DNA of 64,000 nt from Thermoanaerobaculia bacterium (GCA_022823665.1 JAJEHN010000037.1:23531-87530); one strand, 5' to 3'; shown: positions 13,025 through 63,392, counted from the stretch's first letter. Notes: generated from the sequence alone by a model not told the origin. Program-made: numbers and translations.

Positions 13025-13872
13025 GGCCGGCGGTCGTGTCCGAAGTACCCGACATCCTGCGGCGCATCTGCGAGCAGCGGCGCCGGCGCGTGGTTGCCGG
13101 CGACGCGGGCGTATCCCCGGCGGGGCGTCTGCCCGCCGAGGCCCCGGGCGGTCGCTTCCTCGACGCGATCTCCGCGCGCCGCGGCCGGGCCGTGATCGCC
13201 GAGATCAAGATGGGTTCGCCCAAGCTGGGCGACCTGCGCGGCCGTTTCGATCCGGTCGCGCGCGCCGCGACCTACGCCGATGCCGGGGCGGCCTGCCTGT
13301 CCGTCGTGGTCGAGCCGGACCACTTCCACGGAAGCTACGAACTGCTGGCCGGGTGCGCGGCCGCGTCCGGGCTGCCGGCGGTGGCGAAGGACTTCGTCGT
13401 CTCCGACGTGCAGCTCGCGTGGGCGCGGGACGCGGGCGCCTCCGCCGTGCTGCTGATCGCGGCCCTCCACGACGCGGCTGAACTGCGCCGTCTGGCAGGG
13501 GTCGCCCGCGGCCTCGGGCTCGTGCCGCTGATCGAGACCCACGACGACGCGGACTTCGAGAAACTCCGTCCGCTGGCGCCGGACGACGGCGACGGGAAGA
13601 ACTCCAGTTGGGAACTGGTGGGCATCAACAACCGCGACCTGCGCACGTTCGAGGTCGACCTGGAACGCAGCGCCGGCCGCGTCGGCTGCCTGCCGTCGTC
13701 GGCCCTCAAGGTCGCCGAGTCGGGCATCCACACCGGCGCCGACGTCGCGAAACTGCGCCAAGCCGGTTTCGACGCTTTCCTGATCGGCGAACGCCTCGTG
13801 CTCTCCGGCGACCCCGCGGCGGCACTCGCTGAACTACTGGGTGCGCCGGCGCCCCACGAGGTGACCTCGTGA
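13021..13872 (+). CDS. trpC: Indole-3-glycerol phosphate synthase
   Basis: AEIK.GSP, KDF, GINNRDL, AESGI, LIGE. Confidence 0.93.
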   Translation: MRPAVVSEVPDILRRICEQRRRRVVAGDAGVSPAGRLPAEAPGGRFLDAISARRGRAVIAEIKMGSPKLGDLRGRFDPVARAATYADAGAACLSVVVEPDHFHGSYELLAGCAAASGLPAVAKDFVVSDVQLAWARDAGASAVLLIAALHDAAELRRLAGVARGLGLVPLIETHDDADFEKLRPLAPDDGDGKNSSWELVGINNRDLRTFEVDLERSAGRVGCLPSSALKVAESGIHTGADVAKLRQAGFDAFLIGERLVLSGDPAAALAELLGAPAPHEVTS

Positions 13873-18963: not shown

Positions 18964-20685
18964 CTACCGCGACGGCACCCTCGCCCCGTCGCGGACCAGT
19001 GACATCTCGCTGGTCGTCTCGTCCCGGACGCCGACGACGACCTGGTAGTCGCCCTCGGCCAGGCTGACCGACACCTCGAAGCGGAAGGCGCCATCGGTGG
19101 CCTGGACGTCACCGGCGGGTCCCACCGGCACCGTCATCTGGCGCACGGACGTTCGGCCGCGTTTCTCCTCGTCGACCGCGAGCAGCAGAAGGCGGAGCCG
19201 GCCGCCTGGTCCGCCGGCGCCGGGCACCAGCAGGACGGCCTCCTCGGGTACGACGATGCTGACCGGTTGCCGGTGCACCTTCTTCTCCCGCGGGGTCGTC
19301 GCGCCCAGGTCGACCGCGACGCCGAGCGGATTCGGGGTGCTGCCGAGGTAGGCCGCGGAGATCAGCCGCTCCGCGAGTTGCTCATCCTGGGTCTTGTCGC
19401 GGTAGGACCGGCGGTACTCCACGCTGCGGCCCTGAGCGGCGTGGGGTGCGAGTTCGACCTTCAGGCGGCGTACTTCGCCCGACCGCCGCTCGTCCGGGGA
19501 AAAGCCCAGGGAATAGGTGGAGACGAGCTGCTCCGTCACGTCCTCGAGCAGGTCGGCCAGGTCGTTCGAGTTGAGGAGAGCCTTGCCGCCGGTCTCGGAC
19601 GCGAGCTGTTGGAGGCCGCCCTGGATGTTCGTCCAGTGCAGCCGGTCGTTCTGGTACGACGGCGCAACGCCATCGAACGACATCGACTGGCTGAGCCCGG
19701 TGCGAATGCCGCCCGCGTCCAGCGTGAAGAGAGTGACCCGGTTCGCGTTGGCGTGCGCCGTGAGCTGCTGGAAACGGCGGGTTTCGTCGTGCCGCTGGGC
19801 CGCCGCGTTCGTCTCGGGGACGATGCGCGGGTCGTTCGGGCAGAGAACCTGGGCGATGTAGTCGAAAGCCGAGAGCCCGGGCTGCTGCGGCAGTCCGTCG
19901 CTCATGTACACGATCGCCTTCCGCCCGGGGATTCCGGCCAGGGTACTGGTCAGGTCGGCGAGCCCGTCGGCAGCGATCGCGGCGCGATTCGCCTGCTCGA
20001 CCGCGTACGTGTCGGCCAGCGCCATGAGTTGGCCGGTGTTCTGACAGCCCCGGCTGTTCACGTTGATCTCCTCCAGAGTGAACTGCCGGGAACGCTGGTT
20101 CCGGACGGCGCGGGCCAGCCCCTTGGGGCGTTTGGACGCGGCCTTGAGGATCGCGTCGAGGTCCCGGGTCGGCGGCACGACGACTTCCAGCCGGTTGACG
20201 AAACGCGCGTACATGAAGCGCGCGTTCAGGGTACGCCACGACTCGACCGCCTTCTCCAGACGCCGGAGCAGCCGCGAGCGGTAGGGCGGGAAGAGGTTCG
20301 CGTCGTCCATGTACAGGACGACGGTGAGCGAGGCGGGGTCGGCCGCGGCCTCGGCCTGGGCAGGCTCGGCCCCGGCAGCCGGCGGGGCAGCCCGGTCGGC
20401 TGGCTCGGCCGGCTGCCCGAGAAGCTCCGACTCGAAGAAGTTCGTGATCTCGACCGGCTCGCCGTCCACCGAGAGCTCGAAGTCGTCGCGGGTCAGTCCC
20501 CGGACGGGACGGCCGTTCCGGTCCGTGACCACGACGTCGACTTCGACGACCTGCACGTCGAGGGTGTCGATGAAGGTCTGGTCGGGCTGCGCCTGAACCG
20601 CGGCGGCGCCGGAAAGCACGAGCAGCGTTGCCGCCGCCGCAGGTGGAAGATGGCTCGTCAAGCGCTTGAGTGCGTTCTGCTGCAA
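18964..20685 (-). CDS. Acidobacteria-type VWA domain protein (copy 2)
   Basis: Signal peptide; F.DT.DVQVVEVDVVVTDR.G.PV.GL, KAIVYMSDG, LASETGGKA; TTG start with GGAGG 7 nt upstream. Confidence 0.85.
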   Translation of the reverse strand: MQQNALKRLTSHLPPAAAATLLVLSGAAAVQAQPDQTFIDTLDVQVVEVDVVVTDRNGRPVRGLTRDDFELSVDGEPVEITNFFESELLGQPAEPADRAAPPAAGAEPAQAEAAADPASLTVVLYMDDANLFPPYRSRLLRRLEKAVESWRTLNARFMYARFVNRLEVVVPPTRDLDAILKAASKRPKGLARAVRNQRSRQFTLEEINVNSRGCQNTGQLMALADTYAVEQANRAAIAADGLADLTSTLAGIPGRKAIVYMSDGLPQQPGLSAFDYIAQVLCPNDPRIVPETNAAAQRHDETRRFQQLTAHANANRVTLFTLDAGGIRTGLSQSMSFDGVAPSYQNDRLHWTNIQGGLQQLASETGGKALLNSNDLADLLEDVTEQLVSTYSLGFSPDERRSGEVRRLKVELAPHAAQGRSVEYRRSYRDKTQDEQLAERLISAAYLGSTPNPLGVAVDLGATTPREKKVHRQPVSIVVPEEAVLLVPGAGGPGGRLRLLLLAVDEEKRGRTSVRQMTVPVGPAGDVQATDGAFRFEVSVSLAEGDYQVVVGVRDETTSEMSLVRDGARVPSR

Positions 20686-20709
20686 CGTCTGACCTCCCTC
20701 GGTGGCCGT

Positions 20710-22467
20710 CTACCCGGACGGCACGGATACTGGTTCGCGAATCAGGGAGGTCAACCCCGTTCTCTCGTCGCGGATTCCCGCCGCGACCAGATAGTCCCCT
20801 TCGGGCAGGTTCATCGCCACTTCGACGCGGTACTTGCCGTCATCGGCCGCGACGCCCGCCGCCTCGCCGACGTCGATCGCTTTCTGCCGGACGGTAGTTC
20901 GCGCGCCTTTCTCGTCCTCGACGGCGACCAGCCAGAGGCGGAGTCGGGTGCTCGCGCCGGGCGAGGCGCCGTTCCCGCCGGCCAGGCTCGGGACGGAGTC
21001 CGCCGGCACGCTGACGCCTACCGTCAACTCATGGATCTTCTTCTCCAGCAGCCTCGTGCCGCCGAACTCGATGCTCGCTTCGAGCGGGTTCTCCGTGTTG
21101 CCGAGGTAGGCGACGGAGAGGAGGCGTTCGGCGAGCCGCTCGTCCAGTGGCTTGTCCCGGAAGGTGCGACGGTAGGTAATCCGCCGGCCCTTGTCGGTGC
21201 CGGGCGCGAGCATGACCGAGATCTGCCTCACCTCGCCCGTTTCCCCCTCCGCGGGAATGAACCCCAGCGAGTACGAGGCGGCGAGCTGGCCGGTCATGTC
21301 GTCAAGGAGGATCGACAGGTCGTTGGCGTTGATCAGTGCCTTGCCGCCGGTCTCGTGGGCCAGCAGGTGCAGGCCGCTCTGGGCGTTCATCGCCCGCAGG
21401 CTGACGTTCCGGGTCGAGGGCGACAACTGGGGGTTGTCGAGTGAGATATCGGGGCTGGCACCGCGCACGCCGGCGGCATCGACTCCGTAGAACGTGACGC
21501 GATTCGCGTTGGCGTGAGCCGAGATGCGGTTGAACCGGCGGCTCTCGTCGTACTGGACGATCTCCGCCATCGTCTCCGAGTTCGCGCTGGGGCGCAGGTC
21601 CCGGCAGAGTTCGCTGCCCAGGTAGTCGAGGACGGAGATGCCGGGCCGTTGGGGCAGGCCGTCCGTGACGTGGATCACAGCCTTCCTGCCCGGCACCCCG
21701 GCGAGGGTGGTCACCAGATCGGCGAGGCCGTCGGCCGCGACCGCCGTGTTGGTCGCCCGGTTGTCGGCGTACTGCCGCGCCAGCCCCAGCATCTCGCCCC
21801 AGTTGTCCTCGCAGGGGCGACAGTACGGCGCCAATCTGCAGGCCTCGTAGCTGTCGATCAGGCTCCGAATCGCAAAGAGACGGGCGCCGCGGCCGTTCTG
21901 GATCGCCCGCGGGGAGCCCTTCGGGATGCTCGTCGCCCCTTCCAGGATGCCGCCGAGGTCGCGCGTGGGCGGCACGAGCACCTCGAGCCGGTTGACGAAC
22001 CGGGCGAGCATGAAGCTTGCGTCCATGGACCGCCACGGCTCGACCGCGGCTTCCAGCCGTCGCAACAGGCGGGTGCGGTGAGACGGGAAGATGTTCGGGT
22101 CGTCCAGGTAGAAGACGACGGTGAGCGGACCCGGGTCGGCGTTGCCGGATGGTGTCACGGCGCGCACGGCAGGGCGTTCCCGTTTGCGGTTGCCGGTCGG
22201 CCTGTCCACGAAGATCGCCGACTCGTAGAAGTTCGTGATCGCGACCGGCTGACCATCGACGTACAGCTCGAAGTCCTCGCGATCCAGCCCCTTGACCGGG
22301 CGCCCCTTCCTGTCGGTCACCGCGACGTCGACTTCGACCACCTGGACGTCGACCGAGTCGACGAAAGGCTGGCTGGGTTGGGCTTCCAGGGTCGCTGCCA
22401 GGGCGAGGCACAGAAACGATGCCAGGGCCGGCGCCGTTCGCGGATTGCGCTCAGGTCGTGTCGCCAT
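20710..22467 (-). CDS. Acidobacteria-type VWA domain protein (copy 1)
   Basis: Same architecture, clear paralog of 18964-20685; GGAGG SD upstream. Confidence 0.85.
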   Translation of the reverse strand: MATRPERNPRTAPALASFLCLALAATLEAQPSQPFVDSVDVQVVEVDVAVTDRKGRPVKGLDREDFELYVDGQPVAITNFYESAIFVDRPTGNRKRERPAVRAVTPSGNADPGPLTVVFYLDDPNIFPSHRTRLLRRLEAAVEPWRSMDASFMLARFVNRLEVLVPPTRDLGGILEGATSIPKGSPRAIQNGRGARLFAIRSLIDSYEACRLAPYCRPCEDNWGEMLGLARQYADNRATNTAVAADGLADLVTTLAGVPGRKAVIHVTDGLPQRPGISVLDYLGSELCRDLRPSANSETMAEIVQYDESRRFNRISAHANANRVTFYGVDAAGVRGASPDISLDNPQLSPSTRNVSLRAMNAQSGLHLLAHETGGKALINANDLSILLDDMTGQLAASYSLGFIPAEGETGEVRQISVMLAPGTDKGRRITYRRTFRDKPLDERLAERLLSVAYLGNTENPLEASIEFGGTRLLEKKIHELTVGVSVPADSVPSLAGGNGASPGASTRLRLWLVAVEDEKGARTTVRQKAIDVGEAAGVAADDGKYRVEVAMNLPEGDYLVAAGIRDERTGLTSLIREPVSVPSG

Positions 22468-22647
22468 GTTGCCTCCCTACGTCCCACTTGGGGCTGTTGG
22501 TCGATCCTGACGGACAGTGACGCAATTTTCGTGCCGGGACGGCTGCACACCGAGCGGCAGGGCTAGCCTCGGGGTGATTGGTTGCCGGGCTGGCGGCGGG
22601 CTTGTTCACGCCGATTACGATACAGACCTTCCAGCAAGTGGCTCCAG

Positions 22648-29975: not shown

Positions 29976-30826
29976 CGGTGGCCCAGGAGACGGCGGCGCG
30001 TCCGCGCCTCGACTGGGCGCTCCTGGCCCGGCAGGTCGGCGGACTCGTGCGGCTGGAACTGCGCCGGCTGCTGCTGACCCGCAGGGCGGTGATCCTGGGG
30101 CTCGCGTCGGCGATTCCCGTGGGGATCGTCCTCCTGGTCGGCTCGATACCGATCGGCGGCCAGACGGTGCTGGAACGCTTCGGCAACCGGATCGTCTACG
30201 AGACGATCTTCGAGACGGTCTTCCTCGGCGCGATCCTGTTCTTCGGTTGCCTGTACGTCTTCTTCAACCTGTTCCGGGGCGAGATCCTGGAGCGCAGCCT
30301 GCACTACCTGCTGCTGACGCCGCTTCGCCGCGAAGTCGTCGTGGCGGCGAAGTACGCGGCCGCGGTCGCCGCGGTGGCGGTGCTGTTCATGGCGAGCACC
30401 GTGTTCAGCTACGCGCTGATCTACCTGCCCGTGGGCGTCTCCGGTGCGATCGAGGACCTGACCGCCGGCCCGGGCGGCCGCCATCTGGTGGCCTACCTGG
30501 GGGTGACCCTGCTCGCCTGCATCGGCTACGGCTCGCTGTTCACACTGGTCGGCATGGTGTTCCGGAACCCCATCATCCCGGCCGGCGCCCTGTATGTCTG
30601 GGAGATGCTGCACTTCCTGCTGCCGCCGGCGCTCAAGAAGCTCAGCGTGATCCACTATCTGAAGGGCCTGCTGCCGGTGCCGCTTTCCGACGGTCCGTTC
30701 GCCGTGGTCGTCGAACCGCCGCCGCCGGCCGTCTCCGTCCTCGGCCTGCTCGCCTTCGCCGCCGTCGTGCTCGCGGTGACCGCCCTGATCATCCGCCGCA
30801 TGGAGATCCGGTACACCGAGGACTGA
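29972..30826 (+). CDS. ABC-2 type permease
   Basis: Hydrophobic helices, [17 protein letters not shown]...AK. Confidence 0.85.
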
Positions 30827-30827
30827 C

Positions 30828-30900
30828 CACTGGGTGCGCGGGTCGTCTGACCCGCCGCCGCCGCAGGCGGCATGAAGAACGCGCCGGCCGCAGGCCGGCC
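30828..30900 (+). repeat. REP-like composite (CACTGGGTG-CGCGGGTC/GACCCGC variant plus two GC hairpins)
   Basis: Starts 1 nt after the permease stop; CACTGGGTGCGCGGGTCGTCTGACCCGC 30828-30855; matches copies in aroE and hemCD. Confidence 0.85.
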
Positions 30901-30920
30901 CAATCTGCCACGATTGCCTT

Positions 30921-31747: not shown

Positions 31748-31789
31748 GGCGGCGCACAAACTACCGCACTTGACGTGTCGGCGACAGCA

Positions 31790-31836
31790 ACTGGGTGCGC
31801 CGGCGCCCTCGCCGGCATCCGGCGCAGAGCGCCGGC
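31790..31836 (+). repeat. REP-like palindrome (GCCGGC-stem variant)
   Basis: ACTGGGTGCGCCGGCGCCCTCGCCGGCATCCGGCGC identical to 46609-46644. Confidence 0.9.
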
Positions 31837-31870
31837 CCTCCGGCCGACACCCACGGCTATGCTTCACGCC

Positions 31871-39381: not shown

Positions 39382-39401
39382 GAGTCGTGAAGGATACGGG
39401 C

Positions 39402-39455
39402 TCGCCGCTTCGCGGCGTCGCGCGGATGCCGGCGAGGGCGCCGGCGCACCCAGTG
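39402..39455 (-). repeat. REP-like palindrome plus GCCGC-TTC-GCGGC hairpin
   Basis: Reverse complement of 39424-39455 equals 46608-46639 (32/32); begins 7 nt after the GPP34 stop. Confidence 0.9.
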
Positions 39456-39462
39456 CGGGGAT

Positions 39463-40164
39463 TCAGCCGGAGTTCGAGGAGGTCGACGAGGCGATGATGG
39501 CGGGCATGACGGCGGCCGCGGTGATGGCGGCCTGCGCTGCCTGGACGGCGTTGGACGTGGCCTTGCCGATGACGTCTCCCTTGGTGAGGCTCTTGATGCG
39601 CTGCTTGCGGGGTCTCAGTTCCCGGCGGCCGAAGGTCGGGTTGAGCAGGCCGACCGCGTGCGCCAGAGCGGCCAGGACGACCGTCCGGGGCTCGACTTCC
39701 CGGTCGTCGCTGAAGATCGCGGTGCGCAGGCGCTCGATGATCTCCCGTTCGGGGCCAGGGTCGATTTCCGGGAAGACGCGTCGCCTGAAGATGAGGAGGA
39801 TCTCCTGCTCATCCGCCCGCAGGATGCGCCGGGAGCAGAGCTGTTCGGCGACCCGGTGGTGGAGCTTCTTCATGGAGGAGAAGCGCGTGATCCAGGTCTG
39901 GATCGAGGCGCGCCGTTTGGCGTCCCGGATTCTCTTCAGGCACTCGTTGAGGATGGCGTCTTCGGTGCGGCGGATCTCGCGGACCTCGACCAGCTTGCGC
40001 CAGCGGCGCGACTCGTCGATGCGGATGCGCTCTCTGAGCAGGAGCTCGGCGGCGATCGCGCCGCCGAGTCCGATGCTCGTGTGGGCGCCGCCCAGGGTGC
40101 CCTTCGTGTCGTGCAGCGCGAGGAGGAGCAGTTCTTCGTGGAGGTGGAGGGGGGTGTCGCGCAT
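39463..40164 (-). CDS. GPP34/GOLPH3 family protein
   Basis: L.LHEELLLLAL.D.KG, GGAIAAELLL.ERI, FRRRVFPE.D. Confidence 0.85.
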   Translation of the reverse strand: MRDTPLHLHEELLLLALHDTKGTLGGAHTSIGLGGAIAAELLLRERIRIDESRRWRKLVEVREIRRTEDAILNECLKRIRDAKRRASIQTWITRFSSMKKLHHRVAEQLCSRRILRADEQEILLIFRRRVFPEIDPGPEREIIERLRTAIFSDDREVEPRTVVLAALAHAVGLLNPTFGRRELRPRKQRIKSLTKGDVIGKATSNAVQAAQAAITAAAVMPAIIASSTSSNSG

Positions 40165-46600: not shown

Positions 46601-46607
46601 CGTCCTC

Positions 46608-46655
46608 CACTGGGTGCGCCGGCGCCCTCGCCGGCATCCGGCGCGAGGCGCCGGC
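46608..46655 (+). repeat. REP-like palindrome
   Basis: CACTGGGTGCGCCGGCGCCCTCGCCGGCATCCGGCGC, 7 nt after the msrP stop, between convergent genes. Confidence 0.9.
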
Positions 46656-52682: not shown

Positions 52683-52729
52683 CGGCGCTTCGCGCCGGGT
52701 GCCGGCCAGAAGGCCGGCGCACCGGCAGT
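52683..52729 (-). repeat. Diverged REP-like palindrome filling the gap between convergent genes
   Basis: Reverse complement ACTGCCGGTGCGCCGGCCTTCTGGCCGGCACCCGGCGCGAAGCGCCG aligns to 46609-46653. Confidence 0.75.
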
Positions 52730-52739
52730 TGGCCTTTCC

Positions 52740-54176
52740 TCAGCTCGCCTTCGGCAAAGCTCCCATCACGGCCTTGACCTCAAGGAACTCCTCGAAGCCG
52801 AAGTCCCCCCACTCGCGGCCGTTGCCGGACTGCTTGTAGCCGCCGAAGGGGGCGCCGAAGTCGGCAGGGGCGCCGTTGATGTGGACGTTGCCGGCGCGGA
52901 TGCGCGAGGCGACGCTGCGGGCGTGGTCGAGGTCGCCGGACTGGACGTAGCTGGAGAGGCCGTACGGGGTGTCGTTGGCGATCCGGATCGCTTCTTCCTC
53001 CGTCTCGTAAGGGAGGATCGAGAGCACGGGACCGAAGATCTCCTCCTGGGCGATCGTCATGTCGTTGCTGACCCCGCCGAAGACGGTGGGGCGGACGTAG
53101 TAGCCGCTGTCCATGCCTTCGGGGCGGTCGGTGCCGCCGGTGACCAGCTCGGCGCCTTCCTCGATGCCCTTGGCGATGAGGCCCTGGATCTTGTCGTACT
53201 GGACCTTGCTGACGACGGGGCCGATGGCGACGCCTTCCTGTCCCGGCGGACCGACGGCGGTCGCTTCGGCGGCCGCCTTGGCGACCTCGAGCGCACGGGC
53301 GTGCGAGGCCGCCGGCACGAGCATCCGCGTGGGAGCGTTGCAGGACTGGCCGCTGTTCAGGAAGCACTGCCGGGTGCCCGCCTTGACCGCCTTGTCGATG
53401 TCCGCGTCCTCGAGGACGATGTTCGGCGACTTGCCGCCGAGTTCCTGGGCGACCCGCTTGATCGAGTCGGCGGCGGCCTTGGCCACGGCGCGGCCGGCGC
53501 GCGTCGAGCCGGTGAAGGACATCATGTCGATGCCCGGGTGACCCGACAGCGCGGCGCCGACCTCGGGGCCTTCCCCGTTGATCAGGTTGAAGACGCCCGG
53601 CGGAACGCCCGCGTCGTGGAGGATCTCGGCGAGGAGGATCGCGTTGAGCGGCGCCACCTCGCTCGGCTTGAGCACCATCGTGCAGCCCGCGGCGAGCGCC
53701 GGCGCCACCTTGCAGGCGATCTGGTTGATCGGCCAGTTCCAGGGCGTGATCAGGCCGCAGACGCCGACCGGTTCCTTGACGATGTTCGTCGTGCCGCGCG
53801 TCTCGACGAACTCGTAGCCCTTCAGCACGTTCAGGGCGCCGGCGAAGTGGCCGAGGCCGGAGGGCGCCTGGGCGGCCTTGGCGAGCCAGGCCGGGGCGCC
53901 CATCTCCATGGAGATCGTCTCCGCCATCTCGCCGATCCGGGCCTGGTAGCCGGCGACGATGCGGCCGAGGAGTTCCACGCGTTCTTCCTGGCTGGTCTGT
54001 GAGAAGGACTCGAAGGCTGCCTGCGCCGCCGCGACGGCCTTGTCGACGTCCGCCGCGCTGCCGAGGCTGATCCGGCCGACCGCTTCTTCCGTCGACGGAT
54101 CGATCACGTCCATCGTCTTCGGGGCCACCGGGTCGACCCATTCACCGTTGATGTAGAACTGCAGCGCTTCCTTCAT
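52740..54176 (-). CDS. NAD(P)-dependent aldehyde dehydrogenase
   Basis: ITPWNWP, LKPSE, FTGST, ELGGKSP, NSGQSC, EEIFGPV, FGGYKQSG.GRE. Confidence 0.96.
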   Translation of the reverse strand: MKEALQFYINGEWVDPVAPKTMDVIDPSTEEAVGRISLGSAADVDKAVAAAQAAFESFSQTSQEERVELLGRIVAGYQARIGEMAETISMEMGAPAWLAKAAQAPSGLGHFAGALNVLKGYEFVETRGTTNIVKEPVGVCGLITPWNWPINQIACKVAPALAAGCTMVLKPSEVAPLNAILLAEILHDAGVPPGVFNLINGEGPEVGAALSGHPGIDMMSFTGSTRAGRAVAKAAADSIKRVAQELGGKSPNIVLEDADIDKAVKAGTRQCFLNSGQSCNAPTRMLVPAASHARALEVAKAAAEATAVGPPGQEGVAIGPVVSKVQYDKIQGLIAKGIEEGAELVTGGTDRPEGMDSGYYVRPTVFGGVSNDMTIAQEEIFGPVLSILPYETEEEAIRIANDTPYGLSSYVQSGDLDHARSVASRIRAGNVHINGAPADFGAPFGGYKQSGNGREWGDFGFEEFLEVKAVMGALPKAS

Positions 54177-54237
54177 GGGACTCTCTCCGCGTGTGTGTTG
54201 GTTCCTTGGGCCGGTGAGTGTAGCCCGGATGAGGCAG

Positions 54238-55635
54238 CTACGGGAGCAGCAGGCGGGCGGCCTTCTCCCCGCACTCGGCGCCGACGGCGATCGCCCGGCT
54301 CAGGCCGACGCCGTGGAGCGCGTTGCCGGCCAGGTAGAAGCCGTCGATCGGGTCCAGGGCGGCCTCGATTCGGGTCACTCGCCGCAGGTGGCCAGGGGCG
54401 TACTGCGGGATGGCGTGCGGCCAGCGGGCGACGCTCGTGTAGGTCGGTTCCGCGTCGATGCCGGCCGTCCGGCGTAGCTCGCGGAGGGTCAGGTCGACGA
54501 GCTGAGCGTCGCCGAGGTCGGCAGCCTCGGGGTCCACGCTGCCTCCGAACATCGAGCGGGTCAGGAACGTGCCATTCGGGCCGCGGCCTCGGAAGGTAGC
54601 GGTCTCGTACTGGCAGCCGAGCATGCGGATGCCTTCGCCGCGGGCGACGAGGAAGCCGTAGGCCGGCTCGATGTGGGCAGCGGCCGCGGCGTCGAAGGCG
54701 GTATGGACGACGGCCATCGGCGGCGACTCGATCTGCCGGAGTTCGGCCGCGGCCTCTGCCGAGACGCCGTCGACGAGATCCGCGGCCGAAGGCAGGTCGG
54801 CCGCTACGACGACTGCATCTCCAGTGACTTCGCCGCCGGACGAAGCGACCCTGAAGCCGCTGCCGCGCCGCTCGATCGCGGTGACCCGCCGGTTGCAGCG
54901 GACTTCGATTCCCGGAAGAGCGCCGACGGCGTGCGGAAAGGCCTGGATGCCGTGGCGAAGTGTCCGGTGCCCTGGCGGCGGAACGCCGCGCCTGCGGCCG
55001 GCGCGCATCGCCTTGAACAGGGAACCGTAGGCCCGTTCCATCGCGACCAGACGCGGAAACGCGGCCGCGGCCGAGAGCTTCCGCGCGTCGCCGGCGAAGA
55101 TGCCGAGGACGACGGGCGAGATGAGGCGCCGGGCCGCCTGCGGCCCCATGCGGCGGGCGGCGAAGTCGTACAGCGACTCGTCTTCGCCGGCGCCGCCCTC
55201 CGCGTCGTCGTCGTGCCGACTCCGCACCAGGGGTTCCAGCGCCAGCCGCGCCAGGCCGAGCGGTCCCAGCATGCCGCTCCTGGCGAAGGCCAGCGGGCTG
55301 CGCCGCAACTCCCGCAGCCTGCCGCCCCGGTAGATGTAGCGTCGGTTCGCCGCCGGTTCCGGCGCCAGCACCTCGCTCTCGAGGCCGCAGGCGGCGATCA
55401 TCTCCCGCACGACCGGCTGATCGTCGAGGAAACCCTGGGGGCCGGTCTCGATCAGGAAGCCGCCGGCCTGTCCGGTCCGGGCCTTGCCGCCGACCTCGCC
55501 GTCCGCCTCGAGCACGAGGATCTCGATCTCGCGGCCGGCGCGCTCCGCTTCGACCGACGCTTTCCAGGCGGCGGCCAGTCCGGAAGGCCCGCCGCCGACG
55601 ACAACCAGGCGGCAGGCCTCCGGCTGTTCGCTCAA
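54238..55635 (-). CDS. hemY: FAD-dependent protoporphyrinogen/coproporphyrinogen oxidase (HemY type)
   Basis: VVGGGPSGLAAA, GGKART, ETGPQGF, GIFAGD, W..AIPQY..GH, AGN...GVG; TTG start by TTGA overlap. Confidence 0.9.
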   Translation of the reverse strand: MSEQPEACRLVVVGGGPSGLAAAWKASVEAERAGREIEILVLEADGEVGGKARTGQAGGFLIETGPQGFLDDQPVVREMIAACGLESEVLAPEPAANRRYIYRGGRLRELRRSPLAFARSGMLGPLGLARLALEPLVRSRHDDDAEGGAGEDESLYDFAARRMGPQAARRLISPVVLGIFAGDARKLSAAAAFPRLVAMERAYGSLFKAMRAGRRRGVPPPGHRTLRHGIQAFPHAVGALPGIEVRCNRRVTAIERRGSGFRVASSGGEVTGDAVVVAADLPSAADLVDGVSAEAAAELRQIESPPMAVVHTAFDAAAAAHIEPAYGFLVARGEGIRMLGCQYETATFRGRGPNGTFLTRSMFGGSVDPEAADLGDAQLVDLTLRELRRTAGIDAEPTYTSVARWPHAIPQYAPGHLRRVTRIEAALDPIDGFYLAGNALHGVGLSRAIAVGAECGEKAARLLLP

Positions 55636-56726
55636 GCGTCCTCCGCCTCGGCGTGGACGGCCTCGACCAGGGCCTGCACCGCCTGAAGCGGCGTTTCCGG
55701 CAGCACGCCGTGTCCCAGGTTCACGATGTGGCCGCGGCGAGGGAGGCTGGCGAGCAGGAGTCCGGTCTCGCGCCGGACCGCCCGTTCGCCGGCCAGGAGC
55801 GCGGCGGGGTCCAGGTTGCCCTGCAGGCAAAGGTCCGGCCGCCGCCGGCGCAGCGCGCCGAGGTCGGTACGCCAGTCGACGCCGAGCGCTTCGCAGGGCA
55901 GACCTGCGTAGTCGTCCACCAACTGGGGCGCGGCGTGGAGGAAGAGGATGCGGGGGACGGCGGCGTCGCCTAGTCGCCGCAGCAGCCGATCGAGGTGCGG
56001 CCGAATCCTCCGCCGCCATTCGGAGCGCGGGAAGAGGCCGGCCCAGGAGTCGAAGACCTGGACCGCGTCGGCGCCGGCCCGGTGCTGCCCGATCAGATAG
56101 CGGGCGCAGAGCCGTCCCAGGCGGTCGAGCAGGGCGTCGAAAGCCGCCGGCTCCTGGTAGGCGAACGCCCGCAGCCGCGGGAAGTCGCGGACGCCGCGAC
56201 CCTCGACCAGGTAGGCCGCGAGGGTCAACGGAGCGCCCGCGAAGCCGAGGAGCGCCGTCTCCGGGACGAGCTCGGACCGCACGATCCGCTGGGCGGCCGC
56301 GACCTCCGGGGCGATCGCGGCTTCGTCGAGGTCGTCGGGATCGGGCAGGGCGGCGACGTCCCGCGCGCTCCGGATCGGCTCGGCGATCACGGGCCCCGGA
56401 TCGAAGCGGAAGTCGACGCCGAGCGCCGGCATGGGCGACATGATGTCCGCGAACGTGATCGCGGCGTCGAACGGGAAGCGCCGGAGCGGCATCAGGGTGA
56501 CTTCGGCCGCCAGTTCAGGGTCGCGCGCGAGGCCGGCGAAGCCGTGGCGCTCCTTGAGTGCCCGGTACTCGGGCAGGATGCGTCCGGCCTGACGCATCAT
56601 CCACAGCGGCCGCCGCGGCGTTTCCTCGAATCGAAGGGCGCGCAGCAGCAGGGGTTCGGCTGGCGGGACGGTGGCGGCGGCCGGGGCGGCAGCAGGCCCG
56701 GCCGCGGTCGTCGGCAGGCCGTTCAC
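55632..56726 (-). CDS. hemE: Uroporphyrinogen decarboxylase
   Basis: P.WMMRQAGRILPEY, AAITFADI, GFAGAP.TL..Y, QVFDSW, QGNLDP, NLGHGVLP; GTG start by GTGA overlap. Confidence 0.95.
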   Translation of the reverse strand: MNGLPTTAAGPAAAPAAATVPPAEPLLLRALRFEETPRRPLWMMRQAGRILPEYRALKERHGFAGLARDPELAAEVTLMPLRRFPFDAAITFADIMSPMPALGVDFRFDPGPVIAEPIRSARDVAALPDPDDLDEAAIAPEVAAAQRIVRSELVPETALLGFAGAPLTLAAYLVEGRGVRDFPRLRAFAYQEPAAFDALLDRLGRLCARYLIGQHRAGADAVQVFDSWAGLFPRSEWRRRIRPHLDRLLRRLGDAAVPRILFLHAAPQLVDDYAGLPCEALGVDWRTDLGALRRRRPDLCLQGNLDPAALLAGERAVRRETGLLLASLPRRGHIVNLGHGVLPETPLQAVQALVEAVHAEAEDA

Positions 56727-58081
56727 TTGCCGGCCGTCCAGCGGGTCGATGGCTCGGAGGGCCTGTCGGCGCGCCGCTGTTCGAGCAGCTCCGGCGCCGC
56801 GGCGGCAAGGAAGGCGTCGACGCCGTCCTGGCCGATCTCGATCGCCACCGCGCGCAGCCCCACGACCGGCAGGTGGCTCAGACGCTTCGCCATCACGGCC
56901 GTCCACTCCCGGAGCGTTTCCCGTTCCGCCTCCGAGAGGCCCGCGAGATCGCCCTGCAGCAGGCGGTCCAGGTTCGCGCCCAGGGAATCCTGGTACTTGG
57001 CGCCGATCGCGCGGATGGCGCCGGCCACCGACCGGGTGGCCATCGCTTCCCGGTAGGCGTCGAGTTCCTCGTCGATCAGCACGCGGGCTTCGGCAGTGCG
57101 CCCGCGCCGGTCGCGGAGGGTCTTCTGGGCCAGTTCATTGATCTGGTCCATGCCGATCCGCTTCAGACCCGCGACGCGGGCGTCGGCTGGAGCGACATCG
57201 GCCGGGATCGCCATGTCGATCACCAGCGGTGAGGCGCCGTACCGGGCGTCGCCGGTCGCGGCCAGGACCGACAGGCACCGCCGATCGACCACCGGCCCCG
57301 GGGCGCCGGTCGAAAACAGTGTTGCGGTCACCGGCGGCGGCTCGGACCGGAACCGGTCGAGGCTCATCGTTTCGACCGCCTTTGCGGATCCGTTCGCCCC
57401 GGTCGCGCCCCCCGTTCTTTCGGCAAGATCGTCGGCCTTCGAGCGCGTGCGGTTGACGAGGACCAGAGGAATGCCGCGAGAGCGCAGCCGCTCCGTACAC
57501 GTCTCGGTCATCGCCGCCACGCCGATCAGCGCCACCGGCCCCGGATGCTCCGCGGCGCGCTCGGTCAACAGGTCGGCGGCAATCTCCGACAGTGACGTGC
57601 GCCCGGCGCCGACCCCAGTCTCCCGGTGGACCCGCTTGCCGGCCCGAAGCGCCGATTCGACCACGCGCCGCAACTCCGGGTCGACCGTACCGCTGGCCGT
57701 CGCCTCGTCGAGCGCGTCGCGCAGTTGCCCGCGGATCTCCCGCTCTCCAGGCTGGGCCGAGTCGAGGCCGGCCGCTACCAGGTACAGGTGCTCGACCGCC
57801 CCTTCCCCTTCCCAGCTCCGGAACACGCGCCGTGCCGCCCCCGCGCCAGCCACCAGCCGCAACAGCTCCCGCCGGCATGACGCCAACGTAGCTCCCGGCT
57901 CCGCCGAGAAAACGAACGCCACCCGGTTGCAAGTGGCGAGGTAGATCAGCCCCTGAGCACCGACCCGCTGCTTCAGCCGCCGCATCTCGGCGGCCCGCCG
58001 CTCATCCGGCATGGTGTACTGCGCGATCTCTTCGGCGCTGGCATACCGCCAGGTCACCGCAACGACACAACAGTTGTCCAT
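56723..58081 (-). CDS. hemA: Glutamyl-tRNA reductase (divergent)
   Basis: LATCNRV, AAGLDS...GE.EI.GQ, RV..ET, NRT, DMAIP.DV; start ATG 58081. Confidence 0.85.
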   Translation of the reverse strand: MDNCCVVAVTWRYASAEEIAQYTMPDERRAAEMRRLKQRVGAQGLIYLATCNRVAFVFSAEPGATLASCRRELLRLVAGAGAARRVFRSWEGEGAVEHLYLVAAGLDSAQPGEREIRGQLRDALDEATASGTVDPELRRVVESALRAGKRVHRETGVGAGRTSLSEIAADLLTERAAEHPGPVALIGVAAMTETCTERLRSRGIPLVLVNRTRSKADDLAERTGGATGANGSAKAVETMSLDRFRSEPPPVTATLFSTGAPGPVVDRRCLSVLAATGDARYGASPLVIDMAIPADVAPADARVAGLKRIGMDQINELAQKTLRDRRGRTAEARVLIDEELDAYREAMATRSVAGAIRAIGAKYQDSLGANLDRLLQGDLAGLSEAERETLREWTAVMAKRLSHLPVVGLRAVAIEIGQDGVDAFLAAAAPELLEQRRADRPSEPSTRWTAGK

Positions 58082-58115
58082 CGGGCGATTCTGACCTAGT
58101 GAGACGCCTGGATTG

Positions 58116-59252
58116 TCACGGTTGTGTCGGCGTCGACGATCCACTCTCGCGCACGCCGCTACGCGGCGGCGCGTCTGATGCCGGCGGGGGCGCCGGCGCA
58201 CCCAGTGTTCGCCACTCGCGGGTGTTGCGGAGGATCAGGTCGGTCAGCGCGTCGAGGTGGTCGGGGCGGTCGTTGAGGCAGGGGATGTAGCGGAGGCGCT
58301 CGCCGCCGGACTCCTCGAAGTAGCCGCGGTTCTCGACCTCGATCTCTTCGAGCGTCTCGATGCAGTCGGCGGAGAAGCCGGGGCAGGCGACGTCGACGTT
58401 CCCGAGGCCGGCCTGGGGCAGCTCGCGCATCGTGGCATCCGTCTTCGGGCCGATCCAGAGTTCGCGGCCGAACTGGGACTGGAACGTGCTGATCACCCGC
58501 TCCGCGTCGATGCCCAGTTCCTCCACCAGCAGGCGTGTCGTCTCCAGGCACTGGCACTGGTAGGGATCGCCGTTGTCGATGTAGCGCTTGGGGACGCCGT
58601 GGTAGGAGAGGACGAGCCGGTCGGGCTCGCCGTCGGCCCAGGTCTCGCGGATGCTGGCGGCGAGGGCGCGCAGGAAGCCGGGGTCGTCGTAGTAGCTGTT
58701 GATCGTGCGCAGTTCCGGCACCCAGCGCCAGCGGCGGAGTTGCCGGGCGAGCATGTCGACCGTGGACGCCGTGGTGGCCGCCGAGTACTGCGGGAAGAGC
58801 GGGAAGAACAGGAGGCGCGTGCATCCCCTGTTGCGGAGTTCGGCGAGCGCGCTTCGGATGGAGGGGGTGCCGTATCGCATCCCGATGGCGACGTGAAAGG
58901 TCGGCTCGCCCGCTCCCTGAGCCTCCCGCAGCCGTCGTTCGATGCCCTCGACCTGCCGTTTGCCGATCGCGAGGAGCGGCGAGCCTTCGTCCGTCCAGAT
59001 CTTCTCGTAGAGCTTCGCGACCCGCTGCGGCCGCGTTGTCAGGACGAACAGGTACAGGATCGGCAGCCACTTCCAGCGCGGCACCTCGGCGATGCGCGTG
59101 TCGCTCAGGAACTGCCGAAGGTAGCGGCGCAGGGCCTTCGGCGTCGGGGCCGCCGGCGTGCCGACGTTGGCGAGCAGGACGCCGATGGCGCGGCGGTCCA
59201 CGGAGGCTTCGACGCGCGGTTCCGGTTCGTAGAGAGATGTGCCGCTGGTCAT
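58116..59252 (-). CDS. hemH: Ferrochelatase
   Basis: GVLL.N.GTP, PL.PQYSAAT, SYHG.P, FQSQFG..WIGP, PGFSADCIETLEEI. Confidence 0.95.
   Translation of the reverse strand: MTSGTSLYEPEPRVEASVDRRAIGVLLANVGTPAAPTPKALRRYLRQFLSDTRIAEVPRWKWLPILYLFVLTTRPQRVAKLYEKIWTDEGSPLLAIGKRQVEGIERRLREAQGAGEPTFHVAIGMRYGTPSIRSALAELRNRGCTRLLFFPLFPQYSAATTASTVDMLARQLRRWRWVPELRTINSYYDDPGFLRALAASIRETWADGEPDRLVLSYHGVPKRYIDNGDPYQCQCLETTRLLVEELGIDAERVISTFQSQFGRELWIGPKTDATMRELPQAGLGNVDVACPGFSADCIETLEEIEVENRGYFEESGGERLRYIPCLNDRPDHLDALTDLILRNTREWRTLGAPAPPPASDAPPRSGVRESGSSTPTQP
58154..58207 (-). repeat. REP-like palindrome translated as part of the HemH C-terminal tail
   Basis: Reverse complement of 58177-58207 is 30/31 identical to 46608-46638; adjacent CGCCGC-TAC-GCGGCG hairpin like that at 39402. 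Confidence 0.88.
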
Positions 59253-59262
59253 GCGTTGCCGG

Positions 59263-60237
59263 TCAGATCCAGTCGCGACGGACCAGGAAGTCGGAGGCGA
59301 GGCGGGCTTCGGGAGTTCCGGGTTCGGGGGCGTAGTCGTAGCGCCAGGCCGCCAGCGGTGGCAGGGAAGCGAGGATGGACTCGGTGCGGGCCCTCGCCTG
59401 CAGTCCGTAGCGCGTGCCGCGGTCGTACACCAGGTTGAACTCCACGTAGCGCCCTCTGCGGTAGAGCTGGAAACAGCGCTCCCGCTCGCCGTATTGCAGG
59501 TCTTTCCGGCGTTCGAGGATGGGCAGGTAGGCGGGCAGGAAGTGATCGCCGATGCTGCGCGCGAAGGCGTAGCAGCGTCCGAACGGGTCGAGCCCGGAGG
59601 GCTGTTCGAGGCGGTTCAGGTCGTCGAAGAAGAGGCCGCCGACGCCGCGCATCTCCTGGCGGTGGGGAAGGTAGAAGTAGTCGTCGCAGGCGGCCTTGTA
59701 GCGGCTGTAGAGACCGTCGCCGAACGGCGCGCAGGCCTCGGCCGCCGTCCGGTGCCAGTGAACCGCGTCCTCCTCGAAGCCGTAGTACGGGGTCAGGTCG
59801 AAGCCGCCGCCGAACCACCAGCCTTCTTCCTCTTCGTCGCCCGTTTCTTCTGGCGAACGGCCTTCCGGCGAATGGGCGATGAAGAAGCGGATGTTCGCGT
59901 GGCTGGTCGGGGCGTAGGGGTTGCGCGGATGGACGATCAGGGAGATCGAGGTCGCCTCGAAGCTCCGGCCCGCGAGCTCCGGCCGCCGTTCGGTCGCCGC
60001 CAGCGGCAGCGAGTCGCCCCGGGAGTGGCTGAAGTTCACCGCCGCCTTTTCGATCACTTCGCCGTCGGTGAGCACCCGCGGCCGGGCGACGCCACGACGC
60101 TCGCCGCGCAACTCGCGGGCGTCGAAGGCGCCGCCATCGACCTCGACCAGGGCGTCGCAGATGCGGTCCTGGAGCTCCCGGAAGTAGGTGGCGACGGTTT
60201 CGGCGCTCGGCTGCCCCGCCGGCGGCTGGGACGTCAC
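59263..60237 (-). CDS. hemF: Oxygen-dependent coproporphyrinogen III oxidase
   Basis: EKAAVNFS, S...[49 protein letters not shown]; GTG start by GTGA overlap. Confidence 0.95.
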
Positions 60238-61532
60238 GGCGCCGGGATCTCCGCCAGCGCTTCGCCGACCGCGCCGGCGAAGCCGGCAAGCGCGTCTTCG
60301 TCGTGGGCGAGCGACAGGAAGCCGACCTCGAACGCGGACGGGGCGAGCATGTAGCCGCGGTCGAGCAGCCCGCGGTGGAGCAGGCCGAAGACCTCGGCCG
60401 TGTTCGGGTGGAAGCGGTCGGCCCGCCGCGGCGGTTCGCCGTCGCCGTAGGCGAGCCAGAAGATCGACCCGCAGCGGACGAGCCGGTAGGGGTGGCCGCT
60501 CGCTTCCAGGACGGGGCCGAGCCCGGCTTCGAGCAGCGCCCCCTGGTCTTCCATCCGCTTCCATCCATCGCCGGCCGCGAGTTCGCGCAGGGTGGCGAGC
60601 CCGCCGGCGACGGCGAGCGGGTTCCCGGACAACGTGCCCGCCTGGTAGACGGGGCCGAGCGGGGAAAGCCGGTCCATGAGCCGCGCCGGACCGCCGTACG
60701 CGCCGACCGGCAATCCGCCGCCGATCACCTTGCCGAGGGTGACCAGATCGGGCTCGATGCCGAGCTGAGCGCCGACGGTGACTCCGGGGACCCGGAAGCC
60801 GCTCAGCACCTCGTCGAAGATCAGCAGTGCGCCGTGCTCGCTGCATAAGCGGCGCAGGAGTCGCAGGTAGTTCGGCCGCTGCACCAGCAGGCCGTTGTTC
60901 GCCGGCAGCGGCTCGACGATCGCGGCCGCGAGCTTCGCGCCATGACGCCGGAACGCCTCTTCCAGGGCCTCCTCGTCGTCGAGCGGCAGGACGATCGTGT
61001 CGCGCGCGGTCGCCGCCGGGATGCCGGCGCTCGAGGCGATCCCGAAGGTAGCGAGACCGCTTCCGGCTTCGACCAGCAGGGCGTCGACGTGGCCGTGGTA
61101 GCAGCCCTCGAACTTGAGCACCAGGTCGCGGCCGGTACATCCGCGGGCGAGCCGGACCGCCGACTGGGTCGCCTCGGTGCCGGAGTTGACGAACCGGATC
61201 TTCTCGATGACCGGCACGAGTTCCTTGACCATCCGCGCCAGTTCGACCTCGCCCTCGTGGGGTGCGGCGAACGAAGTGCCGCGCGCTGCCGCCTCGCGCA
61301 CCGCCTCGACCACGGCCGGGTGGCTGTGCCCAAGCACCAGGGGCCCGAAGGAGCCGACGAAGTCGACATAGCTCCTGCCGTCGACCGAGCGCATGACCGC
61401 CCCTTCGGCCTCGCCGATGAAGGGCGGCGTGCCGCCGACCGCGCGGTATGCCCGCACCGGGCTGTTCACGCCTCCGACCAGGTGGCGCTGCGCCTCCGTC
61501 CAGAGGTCTTCACTGCTTCGTCCGGCGCTCAT
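60234..61532 (-). CDS. hemL: Glutamate-1-semialdehyde 2,1-aminomutase
   Basis: [52 protein letters not shown]. Confidence 0.96.
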
Positions 61533-63392
61533 TCAGTCCCCCTTGGGGTCGGCGCCCACTTCGTCTAGCCACAGGCGTTCGATGCCGGCGGCGGTCGGTT
61601 CCTGTGCGCACTTCACGTTGCCGGCTCCGGCGCTTCGGAGCGCCGCGGCTGTGGCGGCTCCGATCGCCCAGCAGCTTCCCGGCCAGTCCGGGCCGGACGC
61701 TGCGAAGGCGGAAACCGCCGATGGAGCGGTGAAGAGTACGCGGGCGCGGGCCGCTTGCCAACCTTGCGGCCAGTCGAGCTCGTCGTTCGGATGCACGGTG
61801 TAGGCCGGCCAGGCCGTGACCTGGCGGCCCGCCGCCTGGAGCGCCTCGACGAGTGGCGCTCCGCCGCGGGCGGAATGCGGCACGAACAATGGGCAACGCG
61901 GGTCGAGCACCCGAGCCGCGTAGCGGGCGAACTCCTCGCCGCCGGAGGCCCGCGCGGCCAGGTTCGGCGGCACGCCGGCCGCGAGCAGCGCGCGCGCCGT
62001 GCCCTCGCCCAGCGCGCACCACGGCAGCCGGCCCCAGACCGGCTCGCGCGCGGCTCGCTCCGCCACGACGCGCGCGGCGTTCGGCGACGAGACGAGCAGC
62101 CACGGCCACTGGCGTCGCGGGCGGCTCAGGTCGATGCGGTCCGCCGGCCAGGGGGTATCGAAGACCTGGACGGTGGTCGCCGGCAGGGCCGCGACCCGGA
62201 CGGCCGGGTCGAGCCGCCTGGTCAGCCGACGGACAGTCTCTGGACCGGAAGTCACGATCAGGTCCGGCGTCTCCGCACTGGGTGCGCGGGTCTTCTGACC
62301 CGCAGAGAACAGCGCGCCGGCCGTCAGGCCGGCACCGAACTCCGCCAATCCCCGCTCGACCCGCCCGGCCAGGGCGTCGAGCTCGACCGCGCCGTCCGCT
62401 GCTGAAGCCGCTGCACCGACGGCACCCGGTGCCTCCCCGACCGAGGCAGGTTCCCGCCAGTCGTCGGCCGCGATCAGGGCGTGGACCTCGTGCAGTACCG
62501 GCCCTTCGAGGCCGGCGGCGCCCGCGTCCGCCCAGGCCCCAAAGGGCCGCAGACAACCGCCGCCAAGCCGGCCAAGCAGGGAGCGCTCCGCGAAGGCCGC
62601 GGCGCGGCTCGGAGGGTGGTCGAGCGCCGCCATCGCCGCGTGTCCGTCGAGCCGGCCGCCAAGCAGGATCTGGACCGCCAGGGCGCCCTGACCGGGCGCG
62701 CAGGGCCAGGAGCGAAGGTCCAGCCGGAAACCCCGGATAGCGGCGGTTGCAGCGTCGAGCTCGCCACTTCGTGCCAGGCGCAGGACGCCCGCCTCCGCCG
62801 CCAGCAGGGCCTCGATCGCGCCGCTCCGAAGCCACTCCAGCCGTCGCCCCACCGAGCCGCGGACGGCGCAGCAGACGAGGTCCGGCCGCAGAGCCAGCGC
62901 GCCGGCCTGCCGGCGGGGAGACGATGTGCCCAGGCGGGCGCCCGCGGGCAGCGACGCGAACGCTTCGCCAGCGGGTCTGGCGCGGGCCTCCAGGGCGTCG
63001 TCTGCGTGATCGAGCAGTGTCGCGAGTTCCGTCGCCCCGTCACAGGCTTCTGCTTCTCCGGCGGTTGTCAGATCCGGCGCGAACAGCAACAGATCGAACG
63101 GCCGCTCCCGCTCCGGCACCGCCGCGATCACCAGGTCGGGCTCGTCCTCGACCGGCAGGTCCTTCAGCGAGTGGACGACCAGGTCCACGGAGCCGTCGCG
63201 CAGGGCCGCGGTCAGTTCGCCCGTGAACACGCCCTTGGCCTGGGCGAAGCTGCCTCCGAGGCTGCGGTCTCCCTGGGAGGACATGGCTCGAACCGCCGTG
63301 TCCACGCCGAGTTCGCCGAGCCGCCGGGCGACCAGGTCGGCCTGAATCCGCGCCAGTGGCGTCGCCCTGGTGCCGATGACGATCGGGGCCAT
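61533..63392 (-). CDS. hemCD: Hydroxymethylbilane synthase fused to uroporphyrinogen-III synthase
   Basis: IGTR..LA..Q, KGVFT, VHSLKD.P, GTSS.RR, GGGC..P.G; C-terminal HemD-like SSPNA, W.AY, FTAPSAV, AIG..TA..L. Confidence 0.88.
   Translation of the reverse strand: MAPIVIGTRATPLARIQADLVARRLGELGVDTAVRAMSSQGDRSLGGSFAQAKGVFTGELTAALRDGSVDLVVHSLKDLPVEDEPDLVIAAVPERERPFDLLLFAPDLTTAGEAEACDGATELATLLDHADDALEARARPAGEAFASLPAGARLGTSSPRRQAGALALRPDLVCCAVRGSVGRRLEWLRSGAIEALLAAEAGVLRLARSGELDAATAAIRGFRLDLRSWPCAPGQGALAVQILLGGRLDGHAAMAALDHPPSRAAAFAERSLLGRLGGGCLRPFGAWADAGAAGLEGPVLHEVHALIAADDWREPASVGEAPGAVGAAASAADGAVELDALAGRVERGLAEFGAGLTAGALFSAGQKTRAPSAETPDLIVTSGPETVRRLTRRLDPAVRVAALPATTVQVFDTPWPADRIDLSRPRRQWPWLLVSSPNAARVVAERAAREPVWGRLPWCALGEGTARALLAAGVPPNLAARASGGEEFARYAARVLDPRCPLFVPHSARGGAPLVEALQAAGRQVTAWPAYTVHPNDELDWPQGWQAARARVLFTAPSAVSAFAASGPDWPGSCWAIGAATAAALRSAGAGNVKCAQEPTAAGIERLWLDEVGADPKGD
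62276..62303 (+). repeat. REP-like palindrome inside hemCD at the domain junction
   Basis: CACTGGGTGCGCGGGTCTTCTGACCCGC, 27/28 identical to 30828-30855 and 27/28 to the reverse complement of 1893-1920. Confidence 0.9.

Follow-up and report, generated by a model that had tools for sequence, protein, structure and literature searches.

The minus strand of the window (the whole 64-kb stretch of DNA that was analysed, to which all positions refer) carries an ORF, hemCD, predicted to encode one protein in which porphobilinogen deaminase (HemC, residues 1 to ~356) is followed by uroporphyrinogen-III synthase (HemD, residues ~373-619). A palindromic repeat lies within the linker between the two enzymes. 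The hemCD locus comprises the following features:

61533-63392, minus strand: hemCD ORF, 619 aa, ATG start.
62276-62333, plus strand (element orientation): REP-like element in the hemCD linker, read antisense as residues 354-372, AGLTAGALFSAGQKTRAPS.
62277-62285, plus strand: conserved head ACTGGGTGC, read on the coding strand as APS.
62286-62303, plus strand: hairpin 1, A-type, GCGGGTC-TTCT-GACCCGC, identified by palindrome count, fold and depth.
62316-62333, plus strand: distal hairpin, GCCGGCC-GTCA-GGCCGGC, which is the third hairpin in the full element and is common to the copy at 30828.

Pfam places PF01379 (Porphobil_deam) at residues 4-242 (E=2e-46) and PF02602 (HEM4) at residues 423-603 (E=8e-20) of hemCD, with a weak match to PF03900 at residues 266-290. 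The cofactor cysteine of the GGGC motif (C280) is invariant, as are the motifs of the catalytic regions. An AlphaFold2 model of the product, for which 43 homologues served as input, has a pTM of 0.86 with both the HemC and the HemD half modelled confidently, and Foldseek aligns it to solved porphobilinogen deaminases with TMt up to 0.81 and to solved uroporphyrinogen-III synthases with TMt up to 0.73. Residues 357-371 form the sole interdomain stretch with pLDDT below 50, and its flanks exceed 80. Judged from sequence and model, both catalytic domains are intact within a single ORF, and enzymatic activity is predicted. Each hemCD half is covered in part, at a depth of 2-5, by metatranscriptome contigs of 95-99% identity; a transcript spanning the linker was sought among these contigs, and none crosses it.

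The repeat was recognized by a 28-mer, CACTGGGTGCGCGGGTCTTCTGACCCGC, at 62276-62303 on the plus strand, of which copies with one mismatch (27/28) are found at 30828-30855 (plus strand) and 1893-1920 (minus strand). None of 100 dinucleotide shuffles matched the 28-mer, and the palindrome GCGGGTC-N4-GACCCGC occurs exactly three times in the window against an expectation of 0.21. On the minus strand the 28-mer reads A364-G-Q-K-T-R-A-P-S372 (AGQKTRAPS) and is followed by AETPDLIVTSG, and the translated ORF gives the peptide across the linker as ...GALFSAGQK/TRAPSAETPDLIVTSGPETVR. A preliminary description of this DNA had reported both the 27/28 identity to the copies at 30828 and in aroE and the antisense reading of AGQKTRAPS directly before the HemD-like start, and the shuffles and the ORF translation bear these out. 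It was also right to place the repeat at the HemC-HemD linker, but the extent of 28 nt was too short, as the element runs on to 62333 and includes a second hairpin. Covariance-model matches in the linker lie at 62274-62306 (46.5 bits) and 62314-62336 (22.5 bits). The hemCD copy is without the middle hairpin of the full element and has kept the distal hairpin together with the spacer preceding it. The repeat-coded residues 354-372 coincide with the low-confidence interdomain segment, and in the AlphaFold2 model the repeat-coded segment is shown as disordered.

Other copies in the window share a common anatomy, in which the head ACTGGGTGC is followed by one to three GC-rich hairpins, and every strong copy has a stem of 7 bp and a loop of 4 nt. 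The copies at 30828 and 1893 have ~85 nt in common and form three stem-loops. The head also leads a second hairpin (B-type), GCCGGCG-CCCY-CGCCGGC, at 31790 (plus), 39454 (minus), 46609 (plus) and 58206 (minus). A covariance model built on 33 members from the window and its relatives recovers all seven known strong copies and an eighth, at 52698-52732 on the minus strand, with a third stem type (C-type). Outside hemCD, the copies in the window are:

1833-1919, minus strand: full three-hairpin copy in aroDE (851-2440, plus strand), an 84-nt (28-aa) in-frame insert.
13836-13853, plus strand: REP remnant (head and half a hairpin) in the 3' end of trpC, a weak covariance-model match (17 bits).
30826-30905, plus strand: full three-hairpin A-type intergenic copy, found by 28-mer match, alignment and covariance model.
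31787-31851, plus strand: B-type intergenic copy, found by head plus hairpin and covariance model.
39390-39457, minus strand: B-type intergenic copy, found by head plus hairpin and covariance model.
46606-46655, plus strand: B-type copy between convergent molybdopterin oxidoreductase and MFS transporter genes.
52698-52732, minus strand: C-type copy with variant head ACTGCCGGTGC and hairpin GCCGGCC-TTCT-GGCCGGC, covariance model 34.6 bits.
58133-58209, minus strand: B-type copy, GCCGGCG-CCCC-CGCCGGC, in ferrochelatase hemH (58116-59252, minus strand).

The window thus holds at least eight strong copies (three A-type, four B-type and one C-type). Five of the eight are intergenic, with the head 2-10 nt past a stop codon and neighbouring genes that are co-directional or convergent. 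The Pfam gene scan covered the genes flanking REPs, as the GC3-based gene caller was too noisy window-wide. The copy at 30826 begins 2 nt past the stop of an ABC-2 permease gene and lies upstream of an RF-1-domain (ArfB-like) gene, the copy at 39390-39457 begins 8 nt past the stop of a GPP34-family gene and lies upstream of a methyltransferase gene, and the C-type copy directly follows the stop of an ORF at 52743-54299 (minus strand). A suspected rule, that every intergenic copy shares the frame of the ORF before it, held in three of three cases (2, 8 and 8 nt past the stop) and was broken by the copy at 52729 (10 nt). The longer head string ACTGGGTGCGC, with at most one mismatch, occurs 11 times in the window where 2.2 matches are expected; a head match at 8684 was rejected as a REP, being a chance match within a HisF-like coding sequence (DLDWVRR).

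Across the 33 family members the head is near-invariant, and the stem types differ by paired changes at four of the seven stem positions while the head remains constant, the members having been selected for a perfect stem. The comparison is partly circular for that reason, and it shows only that several stem types have one head in common. Contig depth indicates that copies are numerous. In four sponge metagenome runs the 28-nt core has 40-100 times the depth of its flanks; in one of them (X1) the core reaches a depth of about 4100 against 69 in the flanks, corresponding to about 60 near-identical copies per genome-equivalent, and the excess of about 60-fold falls in the bin 62278-62304, which covers hairpin 1. 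A metagenome-wide scan with the A-type core matched one JGI contig (L080). No Rfam family matched the window at the gathering threshold or the linker at E<=1. A trait of REPs is a RAYT gene, encoding an IS200/IS605-like tyrosine transposase, that is flanked by REPs; no RAYT or other transposase was identified in an unsystematic look through the 64-kb window and loci of about 22 kb. Terminal inverted repeats, a trait of MITEs, are not evident in the family, whose head stands at one end only. Judged by its anatomy, the repeat family is REP-like and lineage-specific, and its core is the 28-nt palindrome.

Coding sequence is overlapped by three of the eight strong copies and by the remnant, so that in 64 kb about four copies out of nine reach into an ORF, each at a domain boundary or terminus. 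aroDE encodes a 529-aa AroD-AroE fusion, and the insert lies between the Pfam domains Shikimate_dh_N (substrate-binding) and the NADP-binding domain, in a frame that differs from that in hemCD and reads SEDPRTRW. The 84 nt are precisely absent from a 96%-identical orthologue (P0125/L081), from P0126 and from many others, and the flanks of the insert, where a MITE would have its target-site duplication, have only an ambiguous 2-3-nt CGG/GG repeat. In hemH the B-type copy codes for a C-terminal tail of 33 aa (TLGAPAPPPASDAPPRSGVRESGSSTPTQP, followed by the stop) and reads LGAPAP; orthologues with 97-98% identical HemH (L001, L002) and many more distant ones end at ...NTREWRGG, without a REP. These two clean differences of presence and absence support the reading of aroDE and hemH as probable independent entries by one family. 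The trpC remnant codes for the last residues of that gene (13021-13872), which overlaps the start of trpF at 13869.

To place the repeat in hemCD in evolutionary context, 79 genomic loci and more than 100 fused homologues with both Pfam domains, down to 30% identity, were compared. The source of these sequences is uncultured Acidobacteriota that carry the labels Thermoanaerobaculia, Holophagales or 'Candidatus Multivorans', for the most part sampled in sponge or coral metagenomes. Chromosome-level assemblies contain the fusion as well, and in other Thermoanaerobaculia HemC is an ordinary separate protein of about 306 aa. The linkers of deep fused lineages (L030, L033, L037-L039 and L043, at 43-67% identity) bear no relation to the repeat, and the loci of these lineages (10-22 kb) contain neither head-plus-hairpin copies nor strong covariance-model matches. 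The existence of fused deep relatives with unrelated linkers and no REP means that the repeat landed in an existing linker. A neighbour-joining (NJ) tree of the hemCD protein, computed without the linker, splits the repeat-bearing sequences into two groups, Z (which includes the window) and X, both nested in the fused clade. The sequence comparison shows the fusion to be older than the repeat, the order of events being fusion first and repeat later. A repeat-free clade Y (L018-L024, L029) and L032 fall among the repeat-bearing groups in the tree. The repeat may have been lost in Y or have entered on two occasions, or this part of the tree may be incorrect; the flanking residues GLAKxDAGL.AG...APS, common to X and Z, favour a single old entry into both clades. 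A clean empty site for the hemCD insertion was found in none of the loci, and the REP-free linkers of clade Y are unalignable although equal in length. As the shortest REP-bearing linkers have the length of REP-free ones (87 nt), a model of simple insertion needs a compensating deletion.

The linker differs widely in length and content among relatives. Measured from the end of the RIERxL helix to PDLIVTS, linker DNA is 84-249 nt long across the loci, and length differences range over 30-162 nt, every one of them a multiple of three. The linker peptide of 90 homologues varies from 17 to 121 aa and contains from 0 to more than 7 REP modules. The following architectures were observed:

Head and one hairpin only (87 nt): L007, L009, L015, L031, L035.
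Two hairpins: the window, L001, L004.
Full three hairpins: L003, L012.
A-type replaced by B-type hairpin: L006, L008.
Tandem units of 24-27 nt: L002, L016.
More than 7 GxDAGAPS modules: P0054 (121-aa linker).

Even sister species differ, in hairpin type or in whether a module is present, with three hairpins in L012 against one in L007 and an A-type hairpin in L004 against a B-type in L008. In three independent assemblies (homologues P0001-P0003) the linker is the same or nearly the same as in the window. Comparison among loci thus shows the site to be hypervariable at the sequence level. The 28-nt core is 27-28/28 identical while third-codon positions of hemCD are only 62-90% identical to the window. 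This identity of the core, together with the swaps of hairpin type, points to continuing copy-paste turnover and not to slow divergence of one ancient insert.

The reading we prefer, at a probability of roughly 85%, is that a REP-like copy entered the pre-existing disordered linker between HemC and HemD, was kept as a harmless passenger and later became a REP cluster. A copy of the element would have landed in the disordered linker of an already fused HemC-HemD, where its survival would have depended on a length that is a multiple of three and on a GC-rich sequence without stop codons. We read both orientations of A- and B-type units as almost stop-free by virtue of their GC content, so that frame would be the only filter needed. 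The peptide added would be flexible, rich in Gly, Ala, Pro, Ser, Thr, Lys and Arg, and situated between domains that fold independently. Hairpin modules may afterwards have been gained, lost, duplicated in tandem and swapped for other types of the family, the likely routes being re-insertion, ectopic gene conversion and slippage, while selection would ask only for an open frame and a minimum linker length. Of this account, the mechanism of mobilisation and the neutrality of the peptide are what we infer.

Two origins for the repeat had been offered in the preliminary description. One is read-through, in which an intergenic REP between hemC and hemD turned into coding sequence upon loss of the hemC stop. 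Such an event would suit a family whose intergenic copies in the window begin within about 10 nt of the upstream gene's stop and whose copy at 39454 is in frame with both adjoining genes, and the REP in hemH, which turned non-coding sequence into a C-terminal extension, makes read-through plausible in this genome. For hemCD it is nevertheless very improbable: the deep relatives are already fused with unrelated linkers and their sampled DNA is without the REP family, the REP-bearing proteins are nested in the fused clade of the NJ tree, and none of the 79 loci has separate hemC and hemD genes flanking a REP. The same fusion with an unrelated linker in relatives had been named beforehand as a refuting outcome, and it tells against read-through specifically. 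The other origin, landing in a tolerant linker, has held up, given the low pLDDT between the domains, the range of module numbers in relatives and the insertions in aroDE and hemH. The suggestion that repeat DNA supplied a domain linker survives in part, in that the repeat codes for about 19 of roughly 29 linker residues but did not give rise to the fusion. Assemblies classically go wrong at repeats, and numerous 31-mer unitigs stack up precisely on the core, which would suit a false join of hemC to hemD; a further artefact would be a linker peptide that converged on these residues and is not repeat DNA at all. Both are hardly credible. In X1, a source-like run of sponge metagenome DNA, an independent Logan contig of 3948 nt at depth 69 crosses the junction and matches the window over 61900-62700 with zero differences, which also excludes a hidden stop or frameshift in hemCD and with it the sequencing error that the preliminary description had allowed for. 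The fusion recurs in the chromosome-level assemblies and in REP-free relatives, and copies outside genes or in other reading frames (SEDPRTRW in aroDE, LGAPAP in hemH) place the identity in the DNA and not in the peptide.

A further alternative is that the linker repeat is kept for a function in nucleic acid, such as ribosome pausing between the domains, an RNase or processing site that would uncouple HemC from HemD expression, or protein binding, with the peptide as a by-product. Both hairpins form in the predicted fold of the sense RNA (62262-62347; -48.5 kcal/mol, z=-3.1), the head and stems are 96-100% conserved against 62-90% identity at synonymous sites, and the stems remain perfectly paired through changes of type; conservation of head and stem in a disordered linker could instead reflect selection for such a function. 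RNA of the REP core is abundant in one sponge metatranscriptome, but this signal may stem from the many other copies. The module count in close relatives varies from 0-1 to more than 7, and some are without the A-type hairpin, which argues that no particular hairpin is required. Copy-paste turnover accounts better than purifying selection does for the A/B/C swaps between sister species, intergenic copies are equally conserved, and no Rfam family matches; we consider a nucleic-acid function quite unlikely. A broader proposition, that the REP family is actively maintained in the linker for a nucleic-acid role, such as pausing or an mRNA processing that sets the HemC:HemD ratio, or that REP remodelling is a general route of building and resizing linkers and tails of fused enzymes in this lineage, is likewise unlikely; its second part draws on the position of the ORF-touching copies at domain boundaries or termini.

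Under the preferred reading of a passenger in an existing linker, hemCD provides a well-resolved natural case of dispersed repeat DNA recruited as protein sequence with the order of events established. The linkers of 17-121 aa form a natural length series in one essential bifunctional enzyme among related species, and this series could serve for testing the effect of linker length and composition on HemC-HemD channelling. For annotation, a previously undescribed REP-like family with head ACTGGGTGC in sponge-associated Thermoanaerobaculia should be flagged, as it can inflate ORFs, alter C-termini and break short-read assemblies. The known workings of such elements are unchanged by the finding.

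The family resembles REPs and BIMEs in having a short conserved head by a GC-rich palindrome, in reaching dozens of copies or more per genome, in lying for the most part close behind ORFs, with flanking genes that are unidirectional or convergent, in forming multi-hairpin clusters, in varying in abundance between close relatives and in occasional copies within ORFs (Di Nocera et al., 2013; PMC3733652). Catalogues of intragenic REPs exist for several bacteria, and the two REP superfamilies described carry a GTAG or CGTC tag at one end (Di Nocera et al., 2013; PMC3733652). In contrast, the head here is without GTAG, and the single CGTC, in a loop at 30838-30855, is there by chance. The present family further differs from REPs in having several interchangeable stem types behind one head and in its host, an uncultured sponge-associated Thermoanaerobaculia lineage ('Ca. 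Multivorans'). A second likeness is to the Rickettsia RPEs, which are in-frame palindromic insertions (reviewed in PMC10969869). Both are palindromic repeats in frame within unrelated metabolic genes, present or absent among orthologues and at sites compatible with the fold (PMC10969869); in the present family, presence and absence with the frame kept is seen in aroDE, hemH and hemCD, and a fold-tolerant location in hemCD and aroDE. RPEs are about 100-150 bp long and AT-rich, with a conserved peptide and a fixed frame (PMC10969869), whereas the units here are 27-85 nt and GC-rich, are read in more than one frame and orientation and make up, at one site, an array that varies.

The fusion itself has a counterpart in Leptospira interrogans, where hydroxymethylbilane synthase forms the N-terminal and uroporphyrinogen-III synthase the C-terminal part of one polypeptide (Guegan et al., 2003, cited in PMC8698207). 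That fusion is in a different phylum and is not known to have a repeat-derived linker. In its in-frame units of 24-27 nt, whose copy number varies among close relatives (L002, L016, P0054), the hemCD linker is like a VNTR, except that the unit is a dispersed genomic repeat that is also found outside genes and is not locus-specific. The case is clear but has precedents, as intragenic REPs and RPEs are already known; what is new here is the family with head ACTGGGTGC, its host lineage and a REP array evolving within the linker of a fusion protein.

In the window, REP-like elements (REPs; a conserved head with one to three GC-rich hairpins) were found in the coding sequence of aroDE (an AroD-AroE fusion), at the 3' ends of trpC and hemH, and between genes:

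1833-1919: full three-hairpin REP, an in-frame insert of 84 nt in aroDE (ORF 851-2440, plus strand)
13836-13872: REP head and half hairpin at the trpC 3' end
39390-39465: intergenic REP with a GPP34-family gene upstream and a methyltransferase gene downstream
58116-58209: B-type REP (hairpin GCCGGCG-CCCC-CGCCGGC) at the 3' end of hemH, read through by the ferrochelatase ORF

The aroDE insert occupies residues ~329-356 and separates the two AroE domains; it is absent from an orthologue that is 96% identical (P0125, locus L081). At the N-terminus, many aroDE orthologues (alignment A3) carry 1-3 tandem copies of a ~9-aa unit, 'EVA(R/Q)SAT..', past residue 10, and the window protein has none. Read-through of the B-type REP gives ferrochelatase a 33-aa tail. 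HemH of most relatives stops 5 residues past the Pfam domain, and loci L001 and L002 have another, unrelated insertion at the same 3' spot. The REP head and half hairpin encode the final 12 residues of TrpC, whose stop codon overlaps the trpF start (GTGA). At the intergenic site, the GPP34-family gene, the REP and the methyltransferase gene share one reading frame, and loss of one TGA would join the two genes through a REP-coded linker.

Other features of the window are as follows:

18964-22476, minus strand: two neighbouring paralogous genes of ~580 aa each
56723-63392, minus strand: contiguous heme gene cluster of hemCD (the HemC-HemD fusion), hemL, hemF, hemH and hemA
~62940-63080: lineage-specific insertion in the HemC domain (residues ~105-150)

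The paralogues contain stretches 72-73% identical at ~1795 nt spacing (repeat families D1 and D2). In the heme cluster, hemF encodes the oxygen-dependent coproporphyrinogen oxidase. The HemC-domain insertion is partly of low confidence (pLDDT<50 at residues 111-117) and differs among relatives, being much enlarged in the homologue P0058.

Two loci of relatives hold multiple REP units:

L016:4673-4809: REP array outside hemCD, four tandem 37-nt units
L036:5718-5815: inverted pair of REP units separated by ~40 nt

Each unit of the L016 array holds the A-type hairpin (CCGGGTGTCGGTGCGCGGGTCTTCCGACCCGCATCCG), followed by the GCCGC-AGG-CGGC hairpin. The inverted pair in L036, which includes a compensated stem variant (GCCGACG/CGTCGGC), is a REPIN-like doublet.
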